This document shows positions 2,650 through 48,336 of a stretch of DNA of 48,336 nucleotides, piece after piece. Every line of letters starts with the position of its first letter. Within the stretch, counting starts at the first letter, position 1. The notes under the pieces were generated by a model that made no database searches, had not been told where the DNA came from, and saw nothing but the letters and a program-made list of their open reading frames with translations. The stretch lies in the IMG/VR virus record IMGVR_UViG_2874968258_000013; one strand, given 5' to 3'. This stretch comes from a virus. Its lineage: Duplodnaviria; Heunggongvirae; Uroviricota; Caudoviricetes. A program made the position numbers and the translations under genes.

Positions 2650-2810
2650 TTTATCAGTTCGCTCCCATCCGTACCAGTCCGCAAAATCCCCTGAATATCA
2701 AGCCTTCCGTATATTCACGGTTCGTCATGGTTCGCGTCAGATCGTTGACAGCCGCACTCCATGACGGGTAAAAAGTGGATAAAATAATTTTACCCACCGG
2801 ATTTTTACCC

Positions 2811-3968
2811 ATGCTCACCGTTAAGCAGATTGAAGCAGCAAAGCCGAAAGAAAAACCATACCGCCTTCTCGATGGTAATGGCCTGTACCTTTATGTTCCT
2901 GTATCCGGGAAAAAGGTATGGCAGCTTCGCTACAAGATTGACGGTAAGGAGAAAATCCTGACCGTCGGAAAATATCCGCTTATGACTTTGCAGGAAGCAA
3001 GGGATAAGGCATGGACTGCGAGGAAAGACATCTCGGTTGGCATCGTTCCGGTAAAGGCGAAAAAGGCTTCGTCTAACAACAATTCATTTAGTGCGATTTA
3101 CAAGGAATGGTACGAGCACAAGAAGCAAGTCTGGTCAGTAGGCTATGCAACTGAACTTGCCAAAATGTTTGATGACGACATTTTACCCATCATCGGCGGT
3201 CTTGAGATTCAGGATATTGAGCCGATGCAACTGCTGGAAGTAATCCGCAGATTTGAAGATCGCGGTGCAATGGAGCGAGCCAACAAAGCCCGCAGAAGAT
3301 GCGGCGAGGTTTTTCGTTACGCTATTGTCACCGGAAGGGCTAAATATAACCCGGCACCTGACCTTGCAGACGCCATGAAAGGATACCGCAAGAAGAACTT
3401 CCCGTTCCTTCCAGCAGACCAGATGCCTGCATTCAACAAAGCACTGGCAACATTTTCAGGAAGTATCGTATCGCTCATTGCGACCAAAGTTTTACGCTAC
3501 ACAGCCCTAAGAACAAAAGAGCTTCGTTCCATGCTATGGAAGAACGTCGATTTTGAAAACAGGATTATCACCATCGACGCCAGTGTGATGAAGGGACGCA
3601 AAATTCATGTGGTCCCGATGTCAGACCAGGTGGTTGAACTGCTCACTACGCTAAGCTCAATCACCAAACCAGTCTCAGAGTTTGTTTTTGCCGGGCGCAA
3701 CGATAAGAAGAAGCCAATCTGCGAGAACGCGGTATTGCTTGTGATCAAACAAATCGGCTATGAAGGTCTGGAAAGCGGTCACGGATTCAGGCATGAATTC
3801 AGCACGATTATGAACGAGCACGAATGGCCTGCTGACGCTATTGAAGTGCAGCTGGCACATGCCAACGGCGGATCTGTGCGCGGTATTTACAACCATGCTC
3901 AGTATCTCGATAAGCGCAGAGAAATGATGCAGTGGTGGGCGGATTGGCTTGATGAAAAAGTGGAGTAA
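2811..3968 (+). CDS. intS: P4-type tyrosine integrase (CPS-53/KpLE1 IntS-like)
   Basis: 385 aa from MLTVKQIEAAKPKEKPYRL; directly downstream of argW; ORF-track start at 2775 is probably upstream of the true ATG. Confidence 0.88.
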   Translation: MLTVKQIEAAKPKEKPYRLLDGNGLYLYVPVSGKKVWQLRYKIDGKEKILTVGKYPLMTLQEARDKAWTARKDISVGIVPVKAKKASSNNNSFSAIYKEWYEHKKQVWSVGYATELAKMFDDDILPIIGGLEIQDIEPMQLLEVIRRFEDRGAMERANKARRRCGEVFRYAIVTGRAKYNPAPDLADAMKGYRKKNFPFLPADQMPAFNKALATFSGSIVSLIATKVLRYTALRTKELRSMLWKNVDFENRIITIDASVMKGRKIHVVPMSDQVVELLTTLSSITKPVSEFVFAGRNDKKKPICENAVLLVIKQIGYEGLESGHGFRHEFSTIMNEHEWPADAIEVQLAHANGGSVRGIYNHAQYLDKRREMMQWWADWLDEKVE

Positions 3969-4180: not shown

Positions 4181-4630
4181 CTGCGTGTTACGTTCGCCCT
4201 GGACTGTTGCGATCGTGAAGCCATAGACTGGGCCGCAAGCACGGGAGGTTACGATAAAGCGACAGTGCAGGATGTCATGTTAGGAGCGATAGAAAAACGC
4301 TTTGGCGATAAAGTACCGGAACAGTCCATCCAGTGGCTGACAGATAACGGTTCAGCGTATAGAGCGCATGAAACACGGCAGTTCGCCAGAGAGTTGAATC
4401 TGGAGCCCTGCACAACGGCAATCAGCAGTCCTCAGAGTAATGGAATGGCAGAAAGGTTCGTGAAAACGATGAAGGAAGACTACATCGCGTTCATGCCGAA
4501 ACCGAATGTAAGAACGGCATTGCATAATCTTGCAGTGGCGATCGAACATTACAATGAAAACCATCCGCACAGTGCGCTGGGTTATCGCTCTCCGCGAGAA
4601 TATCGACGTCAGCGGGTAACGTTAACTTAA
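4181..4630 (+). pseudogene. IS2-like transposase OrfB C-terminal fragment (DDE domain 3' half)
   Basis: frame opens with [13 protein letters not shown]..., colinear with C-terminal half of IS2 InsD; no N-terminal half present. Confidence 0.6.
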
Positions 4631-5414: not shown

Positions 5415-5444
5415 ATCATCCACCCAATTGGTAATGACTCCAAC

Positions 5445-5948
5445 TTATTGATAGTGTTTTATGTTCAGATAATGCCCGATGACTTTGTCATGCAGCTCCA
5501 CCGATTTTGAGAACGACAGCGACTTCCGTCCCAGCCGTGCCAGGTGCTGCCTCAGATTCAGGTTATGCCGCTCAATTCGCTGCGTATATCGCTTGCTGAT
5601 TACGTGCAGCTTTCCCTTCAGGCGGGATTCATACAGCGGCCAGCCATCCGTCATCCATATCACCACGTCAAAGGGTGACAGCAGGCTCATAAGACGCCCC
5701 AGCGTCGCCATAGTGCGTTCACCGAATACGTGCGCAACAACCGTCTTCCGGAGACTGTCATACGCGTAAAACAGCCAGCGCTGGCGCGATTTAGCCCCGA
5801 CATAGCCCCACTGTTCGTCCATTTCCGCGCAGACGATGACGTCACTGCCCGGCTGTATGCGCGAGGTTACCGACTGCGGCCTGAGTTTTTTAAGTGACGT
5901 AAAATCGTGTTGAGGCCAACGCCCATAATGCGTGCTGTTGCCCGGCAT
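5445..5948 (-). CDS. insB: IS1 InsB (expressed as InsAB' by frameshifting)
   Basis: 167-aa ORF within IS1, overlapping insA. Confidence 0.9.
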
Positions 5949-6142
5949 CCAACGCCATTCATGGCCATATCAATGATTTTCTGGTGCGTACCGGGTTGAG
6001 AAGCGGTGTAAGTGAACTGCAGTTGCCATGTTTTACGGCAGTGAGAGCAGAGATAGCGCTGATGTCCGGCAGTGCTTTTGCCGTTACGCACCACCCCGTC
6101 AGTAGCTGAACAGGAGGGACAGCTGATAGAAACAGAAGCCAC
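5867..6142 (-). CDS. insA: IS1 InsA
   Basis: 91-aa [21 protein letters not shown]... within IS1. Confidence 0.92.
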
Positions 6143-6830
6143 TGGAGCACCTCAAAAACACCATCATACACTAAATCAGTAAGTTGGCAGCATCACCAGC
6201 CTTCTTGAGGCTACCACCTGTTTTCAGGTGTCATTCAGACGTGATTTGCCCCAGATTGGGAAAGCACGCTTTTTTCTCAGCTATCGTCCTCTTATTTTGC
6301 CGTTACATTTCTTTTTGCACTCTAATGATTAATTTACAATAATAATATCGGTAATTATTGAGTAATAATAAATTGATTATTGCAAATGTAATTTAATTCC
6401 ATCTTCGCGTTATATTCCAATCTTTAATCTCCGCATGGAACAAGTTGCATGCGTGACTATATTAAGACAACTTATAACCACCAAAACATTTGCTTTGCAA
6501 GCAAAAACAGTGACCATTGACTCTAAGAAAATTCCGATCTATTGTTAGGGTCATCAAAGTTACTTAACAGTATTCCGAAATGAAAATACAAAGCAAGCTA
6601 ATTGTCTTATTAAACATTATTATTGCATTTATATTATTTGAGCTTTTAGCTCAAAAATTTGGTTTGAGTACATTATTTTAAAGCAAGATAAACAATATCG
6701 GGCACTCTAGTTTTTATAATTAACAATTAAACGTCCATAAAATGTTATTTACTTTTCTTCGCTATTGTCATATCTTAATATAGTGGCTTACGCCACTCTA
6801 CTTTCATCACATTTTGTACGTTTATGTACT

Positions 6831-31344: not shown

Positions 31345-32250
31345 CTATATTTCCAGACATCTGTTATCACTTAACCCATTACAAGCCCGCTGCCGCAGAT
31401 ATTCCCGTGGCGAGCGATAACCCAGCGCACTATGCGGATGCCATTCGTTATAATGCTCGAACGCCTCTGCAAGGTTCTTTGCTGCCGTTAACCCGTCTGG
31501 TTTGGGCATGATACTGATGTAGTCACGCTTTATCGTTTTCACGAAGCTCTCTGCTATTCCGTTACTCTCCGGACTCCGCACCGCCGTGTTCTTCGGTTCA
31601 AGTCCCAACATCCGGGCGAACTGGCGTGTTTCATTAGCCCGGTAGCATGAACCATTATCCGTCAGCCACTCCACTGGAGACGACGGAAGATCGTTGCCGA
31701 AGCGGCGTTCCACCGCTCCCAGCATGACGTCCTGTACTGTTTCACTGTTGAAGCCGCCGGTAGTCACCGCCCAGTGCAGTGCCTCACGATCACAGCAGTC
31801 CAGCGCGAACGTGACACGCAGTCTCTCTCCGTTATCACAGCAGAACTCGAACCCGTCAGAGCACCATCGCTGATTGCTTTCTTTCACGGCCACTCTGCCT
31901 GTATGTGCCCGTTTCGATGGCGGTACAGCAGGTTTTCGCTCAAGCAACAGCGCATTCTGGCGCATGATCCGGTAAACACGTTTGGCATTGATCGCAGGCA
32001 TACCATCAAGTTCTGCCTGTCTGCGAAGCAGCGCCCATACCCGACGATAACCATACGTGGGCAGCTCTCCGATAACATGGTGTATACGGAGAAGCACATC
32101 CGTATCATCAGTGTGACGACTGCGGCGGCCATCCATCCAGTCATCGGTTCGTCTGAGAATGACGTGCAACTGCGCACGCGACACCCGGAGACAACGGCTG
32201 ACTAAGCTTACTCCCCATCCCCGGGCAATAAGGGCGCGTGCGCTATCCAC
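31345..32250 (-). CDS. insD: IS2 transposase OrfB (InsD)
   Basis: 301 aa DDE transposase, overlaps insC in -1 frame. Confidence 0.92.
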
Positions 32251-32618
32251 TTTTTTGCCCGTCCATATTCAACGGCTTCTTTGAGGAGTTCATTTTCCAT
32301 CGTTTTCTTGCCGAGCAGGCGCTGGAGTTCTTTAATCTGCTTCATGGCGGCAGCAAGTTCAGAGGCAGGAACAACCTGTTCTCCGGCGGCGACAGCAGTA
32401 AGACTTCCTTCCTGGTATTGCTTACGCCAGAGAAATAACTGGCTGGCTGCTACACCATGTTGCCGGGCAACGAGGGAGACCGTCATCCCCGGTTCAAAGC
32501 TCTGCTGAACAATTGCGATCTTTTCCTGTGTGGTACGCCGTCTGCGTTTCTCCGGCCCTAAGACATCAATCATCTGTACTCCAATGACTAGTCTAAAAAC
32601 TAGTATTAAGACTATCAC
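32208..32618 (-). CDS. insC: IS2 transposase OrfA (InsC)
   Basis: 136 aa [24 protein letters not shown]... Confidence 0.92.
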
Positions 32619-35345: not shown

Positions 35346-35455
35346 CGGCGGGTTTAAGCTGTGTGACGAAGTAACCACTCTTAACAGCATAACCAATTTT
35401 GGTGATGCTGCCAACTTACTGATTTAGTGTATGATGGTGTTTTTGAGGTGCTCCA

Positions 35456-35731
35456 GTGGCTTCTGTTTCTATCAGCTGTCCCTCCTGTTCAGCTACTGAC
35501 GGGGTGGTGCGTAACGGCAAAAGCACTGCCGGACATCAGCGCTATCTCTGCTCTCACTGCCGTAAAACATGGCAACTGCAGTTCACTTACACCGCTTCTC
35601 AACCCGGTACGCACCAGAAAATCATTGATATGGCCATGAATGGCGTTGGATGCCGGGCAACTGCACGCATTATGGGCGTTGGCCTCAACACGATTTTACG
35701 TCACTTAAAAAACTCAGGCCGCAGTCGGTAA
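35456..35731 (+). CDS. insA: IS1 InsA
   Basis: 91-aa ORF within IS1. Confidence 0.92.
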
Positions 35732-36153
35732 CCTCGCGCATACAGCCGGGCAGTGACGTCATCGTCTGCGCGGAAATGGACGAACAGTGGGGCTATGTCG
35801 GGGCTAAATCGCGCCAGCGCTGGCTGTTTTACGCGTATGACAGTCTCCGGAAGACGGTTGTTGCGCACGTATTCGGTGAACGCACTATGGCGACGCTGGG
35901 GCGTCTTATGAGCCTGCTGTCACCCTTTGACGTGGTGATATGGATGACGGATGGCTGGCCGCTGTATGAATCCCGCCTGAAGGGAAAGCTGCACGTAATC
36001 AGCAAGCGATATACGCAGCGAATTGAGCGGCATAACCTGAATCTGAGGCAGCACCTGGCACGGCTGGGACGGAAGTCGCTGTCGTTCTCAAAATCGGTGG
36101 AGCTGCATGACAAAGTCATCGGGCATTATCTGAACATAAAACACTATCAATAA
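35650..36153 (+). CDS. insB: IS1 InsB
   Basis: 167-aa ORF within IS1. Confidence 0.9.
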
Positions 36154-36558
36154 GTTGGAGTCATTACCCCAATTTTTTACGTACGTAAACCACTAAATGA
36201 TATTTGCGAGAATGCTACCGAGTATTGAAAACACCACTACAAATACATAAGCAAATCCCAACAAATAACCAACAAATAATTTCCAGTGTTATTTTTAGCC
36301 GGTTTAAATTGAACCTTCAAATTATAGAGCACTTATAAATAACAGCCGTTAATATAAATTGGCTAATAGATTTATTTTTATTCAGCCAAGAGCCATGAAT
36401 AGGATTCGATAGAAAAAAGTTCAGATAAAAATAGAGATCTACTTCACAAATCAAACGAGAAACCAAAACTTACATCTTGAAATAATCACATTGATTAGAT
36501 GAATATTTATCGCGCAGTGACATCATTTTTTAATAATAGTTCAAAAAAAGGGCTCACG

Positions 36559-39967: not shown

Positions 39968-40345
39968 ATGACCAACAAAGAAAACAAAGATAAATATATT
40001 AACAAGTTCAAGAAAGAGCTTTCAAAATATATACAACCAACTGCTGGAGTGGACATTCAATTATTTAACTCTAAGGATGGTGGTGGTGTAATTAAAGCCA
40101 CTTTGAATAGAAGTGGAAAAAGAAAATCATCTATTGCTGGTAATTTTACTAAATTAGGTGAGGCAATTACCTCGAGTGGGCAGAGGGTTTTTGGTGGTGA
40201 TCTATCAAATGTGAATTTTTACGGAACAAATACGATTTTTGATGGAGATACAATATTTTTAATTAAATCACCTGATTCAGAGGAGTGGTCATCACAAAAA
40301 GCTTCCAAAGACGTAGAGGGCATCGTATTTGGAGGGAAAAAATGA
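39968..40345 (+). CDS. hypothetical soluble protein (125 aa, Gly/Lys-rich), first gene of a low-GC two-gene cassette
   Basis: AT-rich ORF with no recognisable family; stop overlaps next start (ATGA). Confidence 0.55.
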   Translation: MTNKENKDKYINKFKKELSKYIQPTAGVDIQLFNSKDGGGVIKATLNRSGKRKSSIAGNFTKLGEAITSSGQRVFGGDLSNVNFYGTNTIFDGDTIFLIKSPDSEEWSSQKASKDVEGIVFGGKK

Positions 40346-40770
40346 TTAACATTACTACTAAGGATGGCACTCAAGTCAGTGGTGAAGTAAGAGATCTAGT
40401 AATTCTTCTTGAAACTGATGGAAAAACGGTGTCTGATTATTTGCAGCCAATCCCTCCCAAAAAAGATACACACTGGAGCATGATTTTCATTCCGGTAGCA
40501 ATTTATATACTACTTAATCTTGTATACATTATTGCTCACCCATTATTTCCTGAAAAATATCTAAAAACATCAACATCTATATTTCTATTCATTTCCTTCA
40601 TATTAAGTGCAATAGTAGCATATTTTGTTTTCCATAAGCATAAATCTGCCACTCTATCCATATGCAGCTTAGTGTTCTTAGTGTTAATTGTAGGTGCTAA
40701 CGTAGGGTTTATCAGTTACAGCGACCTAACACAAAAAGCGACGCAAAAATTAGATAGTTTGTCTAAATAA
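40342..40770 (+). CDS. hypothetical small membrane protein (142 aa, soluble N-terminal 45 aa plus 3 predicted TM helices)
   Basis: hydrophobic stretches WSMIFIPVAIYILLNLVYII, SIFLFISFILSAIVAYFVF, LSICSLVFLVLIVGANVGFI; followed by hairpin 40778-40798. Confidence 0.55.
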   Translation: MINITTKDGTQVSGEVRDLVILLETDGKTVSDYLQPIPPKKDTHWSMIFIPVAIYILLNLVYIIAHPLFPEKYLKTSTSIFLFISFILSAIVAYFVFHKHKSATLSICSLVFLVLIVGANVGFISYSDLTQKATQKLDSLSK

Positions 40771-40932
40771 TTATGTTGCCATGCGAAGTATGCATGGCTG
40801 CATGTCTGCCTTCCATTTAAAATGGGCTAAGACCTATAACCCTAAATATTATTCTTTATTATCTTCTTTACCACTTCGGTGATGCTGCCAACTTACTGAT
40901 TTAGTGTATGATGGTGTTTTTGAGGTGCTCCA

Positions 40933-41108
40933 GTGGCTTCTGTTTCTATCAGCTGTCCCTCCTGTTCAGCTACTGACGGGGTGGTGCGTAACGGCAAAAG
41001 CACTGCCGGACATCAGCGCTATCTCTGCTCTCACTGCCGTAAAACATGGCAACTGCAGTTCACTTACACCGCTTCTCAACCCGGTACGCACCAGAAAATC
41101 ATTGATAT
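40933..41108 (+). pseudogene. insA: IS1 insA truncated by IS21 insertion
   Basis: InsA frame diverges after ...QKIID at the IS21 junction. Confidence 0.85.
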
Positions 41109-41209
41109 TGTCAGCGCCAGTGATATAAGACGGTAATTCGCCATTTGGATTGTCCGCTCCACCCAACATGTTGTTTCCTTAAGGTTCTCACACCAGAAAG
41201 GACATCAAC

Positions 41210-43179
<1,970 letters not shown>

Positions 43180-43260
43180 CGAAAGTATTTAGCGGGCATG
43201 AAAATGGCAAATAACGGTCAAACATCGTGGCGTTGACAATATGGCCATGAATGGCGTTGG

Positions 43261-43764
43261 ATGCCGGGCAACTGCACGCATTATGGGCGTTGGCCTCAAC
43301 ACGATTTTACGTCACTTAAAAAACTCAGGCCGCAGTCGGTAACCTCGCGCATACAGCCGGGCAGTGACGTCATCGTCTGCGCGGAAATGGACGAACAGTG
43401 GGGCTATGTCGGGGCTAAATCGCGCCAGCGCTGGCTGTTTTACGCGTATGACAGTCTCCGGAAGACGGTTGTTGCGCACGTATTCGGTGAACGCACTATG
43501 GCGACGCTGGGGCGTCTTATGAGCCTGCTGTCACCCTTTGACGTGGTGATATGGATGACGGATGGCTGGCCGCTGTATGAATCCCGCCTGAAGGGAAAGC
43601 TGCACGTAATCAGCAAGCGATATACGCAGCGAATTGAGCGGCATAACCTGAATCTGAGGCAGCACCTGACACGGCTGGGACGGAAGTCGCTGTCGTTCTC
43701 AAAATCGGTGGAGCTGCATGACAAAGTCATCGGGCATTATCTGAACATAAAACACTATCAATAA
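43261..43764 (+). CDS. insB: IS1 InsB (copy 3)
   Basis: 167-aa ORF in the right part of the split IS1. Confidence 0.85.
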
Positions 43765-43779
43765 GTTGGAGTCATTACC

Positions 43780-43841
43780 CGCTTGCAGTAACGGCGAAAG
43801 GGGCAATGACAGCGCTGCCATGTCGACAAGAACTGGAATAG
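43780..43841 (+). pseudogene. cscK: 3' terminal fragment of fructokinase gene cscK
   Basis: frame (A)LAVTAKGAMTALPCRQELE-stop begins at the IS1 junction; continues the cscK fragment at 48117-48336. Confidence 0.7.
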
Positions 43842-43912
43842 TGAGAAGTAAACGGCGAAGTCGCTCTTATCTCTAAATAGGACGTGAATTTTTTAACGAC
43901 AGGTAGGTAATT

Positions 43913-45160
43913 ATGGCACTGAATATTCCATTCAGAAATGCGTACTATCGTTTTGCATCCAGTTACTCATTTCTCTTTTTTATTTCCTGGTCGCTGTGGT
44001 GGTCGTTATACGCTATTTGGCTGAAAGGACATCTAGGGTTGACAGGGACGGAATTAGGTACACTTTATTCGGTCAACCAGTTTACCAACATTCTATTTAT
44101 GATGTTCTACGGCATCGTTCAGGATAAACTCGGTCTGAAGAAACCGCTCATCTGGTGTATGAGTTTCATCCTGGTCTTGACCGGACCGTTTATGATTTAA
44201 GTTTATGAACCGTTACTGCAAAGCAATTTTTCTGTAGGTCTAATTCTGGGAGCGCTCTTTTTTGGCCTGGGGTATCTGGCGGGATGCGGTTTGCTTGACA
44301 GCTTCACCGAAAAAATGGCGCGAAATTTTCATTTCGAATATGGAACAGCGCGCGCCTGGGGATCTTTTGGCTATGCTATTGGCGCGTTCTTTGCCGGCAT
44401 ATTTTTTAGTATCAGTCCCCATATCAACTTCTGGTTGGTCTCGCTATTTGGCGCTGTATTTATGATGATCAACATGTGTTTTAAAGATAAGGATCACCAG
44501 TGCGTAGCGGCGGATGCGGGAGGGGTAAAAAAAGAGGATTTTATCGCAGTTTTCAAGGATCGAAACTTCTGGGTTTTCGTCATATTTATTGTGGGGACGT
44601 GGTCTTTCTATAACATTTTTGATCAACAACTTTTTCCTGTCTTTTATGCAGGTTTATTCGAATCACACGATGTAGGAACGCGCCTGTATGGTTATCTCAA
44701 CTCATTCCAGGTGGTACTCGAAGCGCTATGCATGGCGATTATTCCTTTCTTTGTGAATCGGGTAGGGCCAAAAAATGCATTACTTATCGGTGTTGTGATT
44801 ATGGCGTTGCGTATCCTTTCCTGCGCGCTGTTCGTTAACCCCTGGATTATTTCATTAGTGAAGCTGTTACATGCCATTGAGGTTCCACTTTGTGTCATAT
44901 CCGTCTTCAAATACAGCGTGGCAAATTTTGATAAGCGCCTGTCGTCGACGATCTTTCTGATTGGTTTTCAAATTGCCAGTTCGCTTGGGATTGTGCTGCT
45001 TTCAACGCCGACTGGGATACTCTTTGACCACACAGGCTACCAGACAGTTTTCTTCGCAATTTCGGGTATTGTCTGCCTAATGTTGCTATTTGGCATTTTC
45101 TTCCTGAGTAAAAAACGCGAGCAAATAGTTATGGAAACGCCTGTACCTTCAGCAATATAG
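43913..45160 (+). pseudogene. cscB: sucrose:H+ symporter CscB with in-frame premature stop (TAA at 44198-44200)
   Basis: two in-frame ORFs (43913-44200, 44291-45160) collinear with recalled CscB; ...LTGPFMI-stop-VYEPLLQ... Confidence 0.8.
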
Positions 45161-45600
45161 ACGTAAACTTTTCCGGTTGTTGTCGATATCTCCCTATCCC
45201 TCAACCGGAAAATAATAATACTAAAGTGCTTAGCCCGGCTAATAATCACCTAATCCAAACGCCTCATTCATGTTCTGGTACAGTCGCTCAAATGTACTTC
45301 AGATGCGCGGTTCGCTGATTTCCAGGACATTGTCGTCATTCAGCGACCTGTCCCGTGTATCACGGTCCTGCGAATTCATCAAGGAATGCATTGCGGAGTG
45401 AAGTATCGAGTCACGCCATATTTCGCTATCAGGATTCTGTGTGATGGTTACATCGCCCGGCCCAGGGCTGTTTAGTCATCAGCGCTTTCTGACAGTGCTG
45501 AGATTTCAACCTGTTGCAGTAAAAATGAGTAGATATAAGGCAAGTGTGCTGCCAAACCCATCTTTTACGGGGTGAAGGTAGATTTCGTTTGAAGGGTATC

Positions 45601-45615
45601 TGGTGTCCCCTGCAG
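45601..45615 (-). repeat. second copy of argW 3' end (att core, 15 bp CTGCAGGGGACACCA), inverted relative to argW
   Basis: exact 15-mer identity with 2635-2649 on the opposite strand. Confidence 0.75.
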
Positions 45616-45688
45616 ACATCTACTTGAGGCGGCAGGGGATTGATTGGAATGCTGTTTTTTAGATTTGAAAAATATTTTACCCGCTATT

Positions 45689-45889
45689 TTACCCATTGGC
45701 GCGGCTTAAGAGCTTATTTTTGAATTCACAATGGTCACGATATAACCATCTTGCTCGTCCGTGGATAACTTTGGCTTTAGGCAGGTCGCCGGACTTAATC
45801 CGGTCATAGATGAAGGTCTTACCGAAGCCAGTATCAGCCATGATGAATTTCAAATCAACCAGTGAATCAGGTTGTAGTTCGTGTTGCAT
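45689..45889 (-). CDS. AlpA-family phage/island transcriptional regulator (small HTH protein)
   Basis: 66 aa; LVDLKFIMADTGFGKTFIYDRIKSGDLPKAKVIHGRARWL resembles AlpA/Phage_AlpA motif. Confidence 0.65.
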   Translation of the reverse strand: MQHELQPDSLVDLKFIMADTGFGKTFIYDRIKSGDLPKAKVIHGRARWLYRDHCEFKNKLLSRANG

Positions 45890-46011
45890 GAGTGCTATCT
45901 CCGAATATGGAATCGAACCTGCAAATCAGGCAATAAAAAGCCGCATTGATGCAGCAATGGTAGGTCTGGATATCTTGAGAAATGAACAGGCCTCATCGAG
46001 TGTGAGGCGGG

Positions 46012-46356
46012 TTAGTCCTTGCGTAGCTCGCTGATTCTTCTGTAAGTCTCTGGTGCTTTGTTCCCGTACGTCTTCATTTCAGACTTCAACAGAGCAACGA
46101 GTGAATCCCATTCGTTGAGGATTCCTTTGAATGCCGGAACGCGCTTTGCAACCTTGTCGAATGAATCTCTGATTTCTGGAATCTGCTCAACAAGTGCAAC
46201 GCATCGCCGAAAGTCTGCTGCGTCATGGGGAGCGCCGAAGTGATGACCATAGATATTCTTTTTCAGGCCACATGCGATTGAGGCAAGAGTTGCGCTACTG
46301 ATGCCGACATCGCCAGTTGATTGCCATTTCAAAACCTTCATAGCCAAATCTGACAT
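46012..46356 (-). CDS. hypothetical protein (114 aa)
   Basis: ORF upstream of and co-oriented with the AlpA-like gene; no recognisable family. Confidence 0.45.
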   Translation of the reverse strand: MSDLAMKVLKWQSTGDVGISSATLASIACGLKKNIYGHHFGAPHDAADFRRCVALVEQIPEIRDSFDKVAKRVPAFKGILNEWDSLVALLKSEMKTYGNKAPETYRRISELRKD

Positions 46357-46597
46357 TTCTTGTCTCCATAAAACAAAACTCGCCGTAGCGAGCTCAGATA
46401 AAAGAAATCCCCGTCAGTGCGAGGATGCTGTTCATTGCTGCTATACACTTTTTTGCTCTCAACGTAAGCGGTAGCCCATTCTGTTGGGTTGGTCAGTTGC
46501 TTTTAGGAAATGCTCTTTACCCCTTAAACGTCGGCTGAAAGAGCTAAAATCCATGCAAAAAATTTACGCAATTTTGTGTATTATTGTGCAGTAAGTA

Positions 46598-47200
46598 ATG
46601 AGCTATTTTCTGTGCAAAAAATGGATGATAAATTTGTCCGGGGCAGGAAAAATTTTATGGGCGCTAAACATGAAAAAAGATTCGTATCCTTATTTGATTT
46701 GCATGACAGTTTCAGGGCTGATCTTTATTTTCCTTTTCTTCTGGTGGCGGGCAGATATCTACAGGGTCACGTTTCTTAATCAGAGTATATCCCACTATTA
46801 CATTCTGTTTAGCATGGGAATAGCTTTTCTGTTATCTCTGTTTTGGGTTAAGAAGGGGATAGTAAAACAAAGCGGCTGGAAGAGTCTGTCAGCATACCTT
46901 AAGGTTTATGCAGGGATATGCATATTTTCTGGATTTTTTCTGATTATACCCCTTACAACACTAACTTATTTTTTGCCTGGAGAGACATCGTCTTATGTTG
47001 CACCGTATCGGTATACTTCCGGTAGTTCAAAAAGTTGTTCTGGAGCTGAGGTGGATGACCCCGATCTACATGAGAATATTCGCATTTGCTATCCGTATGG
47101 CAATTATGAGTACGATAATATTATCTATGTTGAAAAGAAAATTAATACATTAGGTGCGGTAGTGACATATGCACAGACCGCGCGTGATGATACTGAATGA
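46598..47200 (+). CDS. hypothetical membrane protein (3 predicted TM helices plus about 75-aa C-terminal soluble region)
   Basis: AT-rich ORF; true start may be an internal Met (about 46670); divergent from the 114-aa gene. Confidence 0.45.
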   Translation: MSYFLCKKWMINLSGAGKILWALNMKKDSYPYLICMTVSGLIFIFLFFWWRADIYRVTFLNQSISHYYILFSMGIAFLLSLFWVKKGIVKQSGWKSLSAYLKVYAGICIFSGFFLIIPLTTLTYFLPGETSSYVAPYRYTSGSSKSCSGAEVDDPDLHENIRICYPYGNYEYDNIIYVEKKINTLGAVVTYAQTARDDTE

Positions 47201-47363
47201 GATAGTATATAGCGGGCAAGTTTTAGTTAATTTATCGAGGTAATATAATTTACCTCGACTCGTTTATTCTGGTATGAATATTTCGCTTTACGATCGATTT
47301 TTATCTGATGATATCATGCGGTTTTCATATACTGACTTACTGTCTTTTGGTAATGACTCCAAC

Positions 47364-47867
47364 TTATTGATAGTGTTTTATGTTCAGATAATGCCCGATG
47401 ACTTTGTCATGCAGCTCCACCGATTTTGAGAACGACAGCGACTTCCGTCCCAGCCGTGCCAGGTGCTGCCTCAGATTCAGGTTATGCCGCTCAATTCGCT
47501 GCGTATATCGCTTGCTGATTACGTGCAGCTTTCCCTTCAGGCGGGATTCATACAGCGGCCAGCCATCCGTCATCCATATCACCACGTCAAAGGGTGACAG
47601 CAGGCTCATAAGACGCCCCAGCGTCGCCATAGTGCGTTCACCGAATACGTGCGCAACAACCGTCTTCCGGAGACTGTCATACGCGTAAAACAGCCAGCGC
47701 TGGCGCGATTTAGCCCCGACATAGCCCCACTGTTCGTCCATTTCCGCGCAGACGATGACGTCACTGCCCGGCTGTATGCGCGAGGTTACCGACTGCGGCC
47801 TGAGTTTTTTAAGTGACGTAAAATCGTGTTGAGGCCAACGCCCATAATGCGTGCAGTTGCCCGGCAT
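47364..47867 (-). CDS. insB: IS1 InsB
   Basis: 167-aa ORF within IS1. Confidence 0.9.
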
Positions 47868-48061
47868 CCAACGCCATTCATGGCCATATCAATGATTTTC
47901 TGGTGCGTACCGGGTTGAGAAGCGGTGTAAGTGAACTGCAGTTGCCATGTTTTACGGCAGTGAGAGCAGAGATAGCGCTGATGTCCGGCAGTGCTTTTGC
48001 CGTTACGCACCACCCCGTCAGTAGCTGAACAGGAGGGACAGCTGATAGAAACAGAAGCCAC
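47786..48061 (-). CDS. insA: IS1 InsA
   Basis: 91-aa ORF within IS1. Confidence 0.92.
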
Positions 48062-48116
48062 TGGAGCACCTCAAAAACACCATCATACACTAAATCAGTA
48101 AGTTGGCAGCATCACC

Positions 48117-48336
48117 CTGCAAGCGCTCCGCAACGTTGAGCGAGATCGATAATTCGTCGCATTTCTCTCTCATCTGTAGATAATCCCGTAGAGGACAGAC
48201 CTGTGAGTAACCCGGCAACGAACGCATCTCCCGCCCCCGTGCTATCGACACAATTCACAGACATTCCAGCAAAATGGTGAACTTGTCCTCGATAACAGAC
48301 CACCACCCCTTCTGCACCTTTAGTCACCAACAGCAT
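48117..48336 (-). pseudogene. cscK: fructokinase gene cscK truncated by IS1 (5' part continues beyond window end)
   Basis: frame ...MLLVTKGAEGVVVCYRGQ...DLAQRCGALA runs into the IS1 terminal repeat; ribokinase-family GAGD motif. Confidence 0.8.

Follow-up and report, generated by a model that had tools for sequence, protein, structure and literature searches.

An IS1-split cscK and an adjoining 3.6-kb inversion between two IS1 copies in Shigella sonnei

Introduction

How did cscK come to lie in separate pieces, on opposite strands, beside two IS1 copies that carry the same 9 bp at their junctions with the gene? The question is raised by the window analysed here, i.e., the whole stretch of 48,336 nucleotides, which is a part of the Shigella sonnei chromosome (CP044191.1; no paper on accession CP044191 was found). 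The original prediction, made from the sequence of this window, read the arrangement as the signature of one IS1 insertion followed by homologous recombination between inverted IS1 copies.

Adjacent deletions and inversions are classical consequences of IS1. Such IS1-mediated events were reportedly described by Reif & Saedler 1975, Cornelis & Saedler 1980, and Turlan & Chandler 1995. IS copies number in the hundreds in the S. sonnei genome, and IS1 makes up about half of them (PMC7373316). IS1-family elements also transpose replicatively, according to a remark in PMC4471558, and replicative movement of IS1 within a chromosome has been reported (PMC12428005). According to PMC11251922, the cscK and cscB genes of S. 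sonnei and other Shigella are usually disrupted by IS1, IS3, or IS4 elements, while cscA and cscR persist. The breakage of Shigella csc loci by IS elements is thus previously published and nothing new in kind.

Results

An exact search for the terminal repeats located four IS1 copies of 768 bp in the window. These are given below, along with the element nested in one of them.

5430-6197, minus strand: IS1 copy A, with exact IRL and IRR
35401-36168, plus strand: IS1 copy B, with exact IRL and IRR
40878-43779, plus strand: IS1 copy C, whole, interrupted by a 2130-bp IS21 element at 41109-43238
40878-41108, plus strand: left part of IS1 copy C (IRL to IS1 nt 231)
41109-43238, plus strand: IS21 element nested in IS1 copy C (istA, 390 aa; istB, 265-266 aa)
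43239-43779, plus strand: right part of IS1 copy C (IS1 nt 228-768, up to IRR), with a private G658A variant
47349-48116, minus strand: IS1 copy D, complete, 768 bp

Each of the four copies had the exact 23-bp imperfect terminal inverted repeats (IRL, GGTGATGCTGCCAACTTACTGAT; IRR, GGTAATGACTCCAACTTATTGAT) at its two ends. The length was 768 bp for copies A, B, and D, and for copy C without its nested IS21. In copies B, C, and D, Pfam matches on the called genes (Zn_ribbon_InsA/HTH_Tnp_IS1 and DDE_Tnp_IS1) identified the insA and insB' frames. The A6C frameshift motif (TTAAAAAACTC) was present in copy C, and its complement in copy D. The IS21 element, absent from the original prediction, is flanked by a 4-bp duplication, ATAT (41105-41108 and 43239-43242).

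Leaving the later IS21 aside, copies C and D differ at 1 of 768 positions, and copy A differs from copies B and D at one. Only two positions are polymorphic among the copies, namely 262 (copy A) and 658 (copy C). With two variable positions there is no power to map a crossover point. Since hardly any differences separate the IS1 copies of the window, the similarity between C and D likewise has no discriminating power.

The cscK sequences that adjoin copies C and D are as follows.

43780-43788, plus strand: first 9-bp target copy, CGCTTGCAG (cscK nt 854-862), inside the inverted segment, adjoining the IRR of copy C
43780-43841, plus strand: 3' end of cscK (nt 854-915, the last 20 codons and the stop)
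48117-48125, minus strand: second 9-bp target copy, CGCTTGCAG (plus strand CTGCAAGCG), outside the inverted segment, adjoining the IRL of copy D
48117-48336, minus strand: middle piece of cscK (nt 643-862); the window ends inside it

When every IRL flank was paired with every IRR flank (16 pairings), the only 9/9 match was that between the IRL flank of copy D and the IRR flank of copy C. With 16 pairings, about 16 x 4^-9 = 6e-5 such matches would be expected by chance (our arithmetic). The second-best pairing was that of copy B with itself, which has a direct 8-bp duplication (CCAATTTT). No target duplication was found in the flanks of copy A. The 9-bp duplication is split between copies C and D, and the interval 43771-48125, given in the original prediction, indeed starts within the IRR of copy C and finishes with the second 9-mer.

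Comparison with an intact gene was made using E. coli CEA224S (locus L001, 5148-6062). The reverse complement of 48117-48336, followed by 43789-43841, was colinear with nt 643-915 of intact cscK. The gene rejoined in this way, with one 9-mer removed, showed two synonymous differences from the intact gene and encoded an identical protein. The 9-mer occurs only once in intact cscK, at nt 854-862. In the window, the reading frame of the middle piece stops two codons into the IS1 IRL. One IS1 transposition event in S. sonnei therefore targeted cscK nt 854-862, and the two 9-mers are the halves of a single target duplication, as had been proposed.

The csc regulon lies at the argW-dsd hotspot. cscK (a PfkB fructokinase) is followed by cscB (a LacY-type permease), colinear with annotated intact loci, and the Pfam matches were PfkB and LacY_symp. 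cscK-cscB is divergent from cscA and is located near dsdX/dsdA and an argW-integrated element. That element has the features of a KplE1/CPS-53-type argW prophage (IntS/TorI): argW (2575-2649) serves as attL with an intS ORF (2775-3968) beside it, and at the far end torI is accompanied by a 15-nt repeat of the 3' end of argW, which is inverted. The segment between copies C and D contains the 3' end of cscK and the following.

43780-47348: inverted segment, 3,569 bp, colinear with L001 6001-9569 and L005 5001-8571, running opposite to the remainder of the locus
43913-45160, plus strand: cscB (sucrose permease), with a strain-private nonsense codon, TAC>TAA, at 44198-44200
45601-45615, minus strand: attR core, a repeat of the final 15 nt of argW (2635-2649), with its orientation now reversed with respect to attL/argW
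45689-45889, minus strand: torI-type excisionase gene, 66 aa
46012-47200: two prophage ORFs of unknown function (114 aa, minus strand; 200 aa, plus strand)

The torI-type gene, earlier called the AlpA module, had HTH_17 as its only Pfam match, and that below threshold. As judged against the intact argW-prophage/csc loci L001 and L005, the whole segment (cscB, att core, and torI included) is inverted relative to the rest of the prophage and to the 5' part of cscK, and the copies C (plus) and D (minus) that bound it are inverted relative to each other. The original prediction was right on both counts. When the 95-aa CscB fragment left by the strain-private nonsense codon was looked up, it matched only the source genome and no relatives.

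The outer IRL flank of copy C is TACCACTTC (40869-40877) and the inner IRR flank of copy D is AAAAGACAG (reverse complement of 47340-47348). Neither has a matching duplication, and the two agree at 1 of 9 positions, i.e., the partner copy has no split duplication of its own. A clean prophage deletion of 9,253 bp abuts this partner IS1 (L005 8572-17824 is missing), and it can account for the missing second duplication under either of the two main models discussed below. That the partner lacks a target duplication and marks this deletion had not been pointed out earlier.

The same junctions and connectivity were found in CP044191.1 and in nine other S. sonnei chromosome assemblies, 53G (HE616528.1) among them. 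These ten chromosome-scale assemblies, which come from different projects, are colinear with 40000-48336 of the window at an identity of at least 99.8%, with the same junctions in the same order. The count is of the 10 chromosomes among the matches listed; 11 further similar places lie outside it. All 10 carry the inverted orientation, and no orientation polymorphism was seen among them. It is clear that the breakage of cscK by IS1 and the flipping of the neighbouring 3.6-kb stretch between two IS1 copies are real.

Junction probes were also run. The IS1|cscK 3' junction was found in 0 of 5,426 complete E. coli genomes, and an uninverted IS1 at this site of cscK in none of these or of the 10 listed S. 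sonnei chromosomes. For an ancestor with IS1 at the deletion junction only, the junctions 40877|IRL and 47348|IRR were likewise found in 0 of the 5,426. An exact scan of GTDB species representatives for the IS1-IRR|cscK junction gave 0 matches, and is uninformative because GTDB folds Shigella into the E. coli species.

Discussion

The structure observed is that predicted for duplicative inversion, a-[IRL..IRR]-t'-inverted segment-[IRR..IRL]-t-d. One target copy lies inside the segment at an IRR, the other lies outside at an IRL, the two are mutually inverted, and inverted IS1 copies bracket the segment. We consider a single intramolecular replicative transposition of an older IS1 to be the likeliest route, slightly favoured over insertion followed by recombination; we would put its chances at about even. 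By this route, the older IS1 would already have been resident at the 9.25-kb deletion junction in the early region of the prophage, where its IRL would have faced 40877 and its IRR the complement of 47348. In the inverting orientation, both of its 3' ends would then have attacked a staggered cut made 3.6 kb away on that chromosome, within cscK. Replication through IS1 would have yielded another copy in opposite orientation and, with it, turned round the DNA in between and separated the two halves of the target duplication. IS21 presumably entered copy C afterwards, where G658A would also have arisen, and all these events would be older than the ancestor shared by the sampled S. sonnei.

The outcome predicted for this one step, a-IS(+)-t'-inverted segment-IS(-)-t-d, is base for base the structure that two steps should leave. 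In the latter case, a simple IS1 insertion into cscK nt 854-862, with a direct 9-bp duplication, would have come to lie opposite to an IS1 3.6 kb away, and a RecA-dependent crossover would then have flipped the segment, parting the 9-mers. Insertion followed by homologous recombination is hence a possible route, as originally proposed, but the split duplication is not a specific signature of it. The sequence of the product does not discriminate between the two, which speaks against a firm choice of the one-step route, as do two general observations. Simple IS1 insertions are clearly common in the region: copy B, with its intact duplication, is one, and an independent IS1 lies between cscK and cscB in the unrelated E. 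coli isolate 602. Moreover, close inverted IS1 pairs are to be expected in S. sonnei from the IS load described in PMC7373316, and in E. coli evolution experiments inversions are documented to arise chiefly by IS-IS recombination, which accounts for most of those in the long-term evolution experiment (PMC4173774). In addition, the ancestor that the one-step route calls for, with IS1 at the deletion junction and cscK intact, was not met with in the 5,426 E. coli genomes either. Against the two-step route, the insertion-only intermediate was not met with in the 5,426 E. coli genomes or the 10 listed S. sonnei chromosomes, although it may be extinct. The 10 assemblies also show no flipping polymorphism, despite 231 + 537 bp of homology between copies C and D, which argues weakly that crossover between these copies is rare. 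We regard the two-step route as a substantial possibility, somewhat below an even chance.

The number of events weighs further against recombination once the neighbouring deletion is included. As the partner IS1 has no duplication and abuts the 9,253-bp deletion, one resident IS1 and two intramolecular events could cover the deletion and the inversion together. The tally would be one insertion and two intramolecular transpositions, compared with three insertions and two crossovers if everything proceeded by recombination. The locus may then be a fossil of transposase-driven, rather than RecA-driven, restructuring, in which one resident IS1 first deleted the adjacent 9.25 kb and afterwards moved into cscK by duplicative inversion, a reading that we hold at just under even chances.

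It is improbable that the donor and target were the other way round, with IS1 first in cscK and then attacking the prophage between the 200-aa ORF and a TraR-like gene, inverting the segment. The cscK 9-mers would likewise be left at the IRL of D and the IRR of C; however, a second split duplication is predicted at the IRL of C and the IRR of D, where the flanks (TACCACTTC and AAAAGACAG) fail to match. This model therefore needs an added, later adjacent deletion of 9.25 kb to remove the second duplication. IS1-adjacent deletions being classical, such an event is conceivable, but as a primary explanation the reverse order was rejected.

An artefact is extremely improbable. Because the junctions stay the same when a segment flips between IS copies, short reads cannot verify connectivity (PMC5009759), but ten independent assemblies share the arrangement, and the fragments rejoin into one cscK with an identical protein in a region with a single csc locus, on which grounds chimeric assembly across IS1 repeats and origin of the fragments from different paralogous genes were both rejected.

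The arrangement has parallels in known systems. In the classical IS1 events, as in the route favoured here, a resident IS1 deletes DNA flush with one of its ends, inverts a stretch while adding a second, oppositely oriented copy and a 9-bp target repeat, or does both; those events were watched as they occurred in the laboratory, whereas here the end product alone is seen. The argument that two routes give the same inversion product was made by He et al. 2015 for IS26 and Tn4401 (PMC4471558). In their 'in trans' replicative transposition on resistance plasmids, opposite element copies bracket an inverted, gene-splitting segment, as at cscK. The present case differs in involving IS1, a 9-bp target and a chromosome, in being an old event common to all the sampled S. 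sonnei assemblies, and in having a donor copy without its own duplication, because that copy sits at a deletion junction. Inversions by IS-IS recombination (PMC4173774; mutation-accumulation lines, PMC5009759) resemble this one in that inverted IS copies lie at the two limits of the segment and the flip makes no novel IS-flank junction. Those are mostly large and formed between pre-existing copies with separate histories, whereas the segment here is only 3.6 kb and one copy was born of the event that hit cscK.

As to consequences, cscK is without its last 17 codons and cscB is severed from its promoter. attL and attR of the prophage are now inverted relative to each other, which should lock the prophage in place; already crippled, it would not be excisable by IntS/TorI.

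The IS1 event at cscK is ordinary, textbook genome decay. The locus shows exactly the pattern reported for cscRAKB decay in Shigella (PMC11251922), the split target duplication and the inversion not being described in the part of that source consulted. It adds one step to the well-known IS-driven decay of the csc locus and the argW prophage in S. sonnei, little beyond bookkeeping. It also illustrates cleanly that finding a target duplication split over inverted IS copies is not enough to separate recombination from one-step replicative transposition. If the transposase-driven reading is true, a sizeable part of the genome reduction and scrambling in Shigella may come directly from intramolecular IS1 transposition and not from recombination between passive repeats. 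Annotators should be warned that cscK here consists of three pieces. It may be noted that cscK is broken twice more just past the end of the window, a point that had been missed earlier.

IS1 copies and their flanks

Exact terminal-repeat matches placed four IS1 copies in the whole window:

5430–6197, minus strand: IS1 copy A, without a target duplication
35401–36168, plus strand: IS1 copy B, with a direct 8-bp duplication of its own, CCAATTTT
40878–43779, plus strand: IS1 copy C, with an IS21 element inside
41109–43238: the IS21 element, 2,130 bp and complete, after IS1 nt 231 of copy C, encoding IstA and IstB (istA/istB)
47349–48116, minus strand: IS1 copy D, complete, 768 bp

The elements matched IS1 in length, in their terminal repeats and reading frames, and in the duplicated target; the copies varied only at positions 262 (in A) and 658 (in C). 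The flanks of all copies were compared in IS1 orientation, giving 16 pairings of a flank at the left terminal repeat (IRL) with one at the right (IRR). A 9/9 match occurred in a single pairing, where CGCTTGCAG stands next to both the IRL of D and the IRR of C; by our arithmetic, the chance expectation of such a match among 16 pairings is about 6e-5. No partner flank was found in these pairings for copy A, the C IRL flank (TACCACTTC) or the D IRR flank (AAAAGACAG).

Splitting of cscK

The csc locus was recognised through colinearity with annotated genomes. When the reverse complement of 48117–48336 was joined to 43789–43841 and one 9-mer was dropped, the product was colinear with nt 643–915 of cscK in E. 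coli CEA224S (intact, 915 nt), with two synonymous differences and the same translation. In the intact gene CGCTTGCAG occurs only once, at nt 854–862. Hence, the original prediction that an IS1 insertion had split cscK at a 9-bp target duplication was borne out by the flank match and the colinear rejoining. An origin of the two fragments from different paralogues was ruled out, as they are parts of one gene with an identical protein.

Beyond the right end of the window (L004, 14496–17740), cscK has two further breaks, one made by an IS3-family element (about 1.25 kb, with a 3-bp overlap at nt 572–574) and one by an IS4, whose overlap at the start of the gene is 12 bp; both cscA and cscR look intact. 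The cscB nonsense codon (TAC>TAA, 44198–44200) is strain-private, the codon being TAC in the nine other S. sonnei assemblies. A 2024 study (PMC11251922) describes csc loci of Shigella, S. sonnei among them, that kept cscA and cscR while cscK and cscB were interrupted by IS1, IS3 or IS4 elements. In agreement with this, cscK is struck here also by the IS3-family element and IS4. Such an event is textbook, and public reference genomes have contained the locus for years.

Inversion and deletion in the prophage

Colinearity with annotated genomes identified the prophage as an IntS/TorI argW prophage. The intact order is dsdA – dsdX' – cscR – cscA – cscK – cscB – (attR) – torI – two ORFs – TraR-like gene – lambdoid early genes ... 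late genes – intS – argW. Comparison with a locus of E. coli JNEC-KY177 (L005) gave the following:

Window 6966–40878, L005 48039–17825: reverse, backbone orientation
Window 43780–47348, L005 5001–8571: forward, flipped segment
Absent from the window, L005 8572–17824: 9,253 bp deleted, IS1 copies in its place

The predicted inversion of a segment between two IS1 copies is therefore real, its orientation being opposite to that of the backbone. The inverted block is bounded, to the base, by the inner ends of copies C and D. It contains the 3' end of cscK, cscB, the attR core (45601–45615, 15 nt duplicating the 3' end of argW), torI and the two ORFs, and attR now runs in the opposite direction to argW/attL.

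The missing lambdoid early region comprises the TraR-like gene, exo/bet/gam, the immunity genes and replication genes O and P. Its deletion junctions (40877 and 47348) lie at copies C and D, and the junction IS1 has no target duplication. The loss therefore leaves a prophage without repressor and replication module. A second argW-derived sequence, the 16-mer TTGCAGGTTCGATTCC (argW 2620–2635), was found at 45909–45924, between torI and a 114-aa ORF, with about 300 bp separating it from the attR core; an earlier or tandem argW integration may have left this trace.

Mechanism of the rearrangement

In the original prediction, IS1 first inserted simply, and inverted copies then underwent homologous recombination. 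This route does yield the structure of the window; a single intramolecular replicative transposition (duplicative inversion) yields the same structure, and we give the latter an even chance of being the origin. From the layout a – [IRL..IRR] – b...c – t – d, the IRR 3' end would be joined to the bottom-strand 5' end of a staggered target cut and the IRL 3' end to the top-strand 5' end. Once the element had been replicated, the product would be a – [IRL..IRR] – t' – c'...b' – [IRR..IRL] – t – d. This predicted product corresponds to the window, with a ending at 40877, t' being CGCTTGCAG (43780–43788), c'...b' 43789–47348, D the second copy, and t–d running from 48117 onward.

Several findings favour the single step. 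The partner IS1, without target duplication, is flush against the 9.25-kb deletion; one resident IS1 and two intramolecular events (deletion, then inversion) cover everything, whereas a history of recombination alone would take three insertions plus two crossovers; the inverted span is only 3.6 kb long; and no orientation polymorphism was found among ten S. sonnei assemblies, despite the 231 + 537 bp of homology left. The same pattern is shown by IS26 and Tn4401, an earlier "insertion then inversion" case was argued to be more likely single-step, and IS1-family elements also transpose replicatively (He et al. 2015, PMC4471558). Replicative IS1 movement inside the E. coli chromosome was described in a 2025 study (PMC12428005).

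Insertion followed by recombination is a serious possibility, if somewhat short of even. Simple IS1 insertions are evidently common here, as for copy B, and E. coli isolate 602 has an independent IS1 between cscK and cscB. IS copies number in the hundreds in S. sonnei, with IS1 making up about half (PMC7373316), and of the inversion sources documented in experimental evolution, IS–IS recombination is the chief one (PMC4173774). With so few differences between the IS1 copies, crossover mapping has no power. Three junctions were looked for in complete E. coli genomes, and 0 of 5,426 had any; since IS–IS inversion makes no new junction (PMC5009759), junction data cannot separate the two states. 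No evidence here decides between one step and two. Under a reverse-donor variant a second split duplication would be expected; the flank pairings showed none, and this variant is improbable.

Conservation in S. sonnei

Through a CscB fragment private to the strain, the window was identified as CP044191.1 (GCA_008727295.1), with 100% identity over 14.4 kb. The 74-aa product that starts in cscK and runs on into copy D's IRL is junction-specific, and 346 blocks of the collection of assemblies index it. Ten chromosome-scale places were compared, eleven "similar" places being left out; HE616528.1 (Shigella sonnei 53G, lineage II) was among the ten. All were colinear with 40000–48336 at an identity of at least 99.8%, and were alike in the four junction 9-mers, connectivity, nested IS21 and the copy C G658A variant. 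The arrangement is therefore older than the common ancestor of these strains. Misassembly across the repeats, named at the outset as a possible refutation, failed against these shared junctions, and it is hardly conceivable that an artefact explains the split cscK.

Other mobile elements and ORFs

The nested IS21 has its own 4-bp duplication (ATAT) and is 100% identical to copies annotated by PGAP (NCBI) as "IS21-like element IS21 family". Identical copies occur on E. coli plasmids and chromosomes.

Copy A, flanked by AAGAAGGCT and AATTGGGTG, parts an AraC-family regulator remnant beside intS from the tail-fibre end of the prophage, and probably marks a further deletion or rearrangement associated with IS1. 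Between the prophage porin and holin genes lies copy B, a simple insertion. Two minus-strand ORFs (136 and 301 aa, 31345–32618) between the terminase region and the lysis genes resemble an IS2-type (IS3 family) element, and a transposase remnant at 4332–4616 pairs with this candidate (285 nt, 74% complementary). Finally, a low-GC (about 36%) pair of plus-strand ORFs (39968–40770), one with predicted membrane segments, lies between the P/nin boundary and ybcN, antiparallel to the surrounding prophage genes, and is shared with related E. coli prophages.
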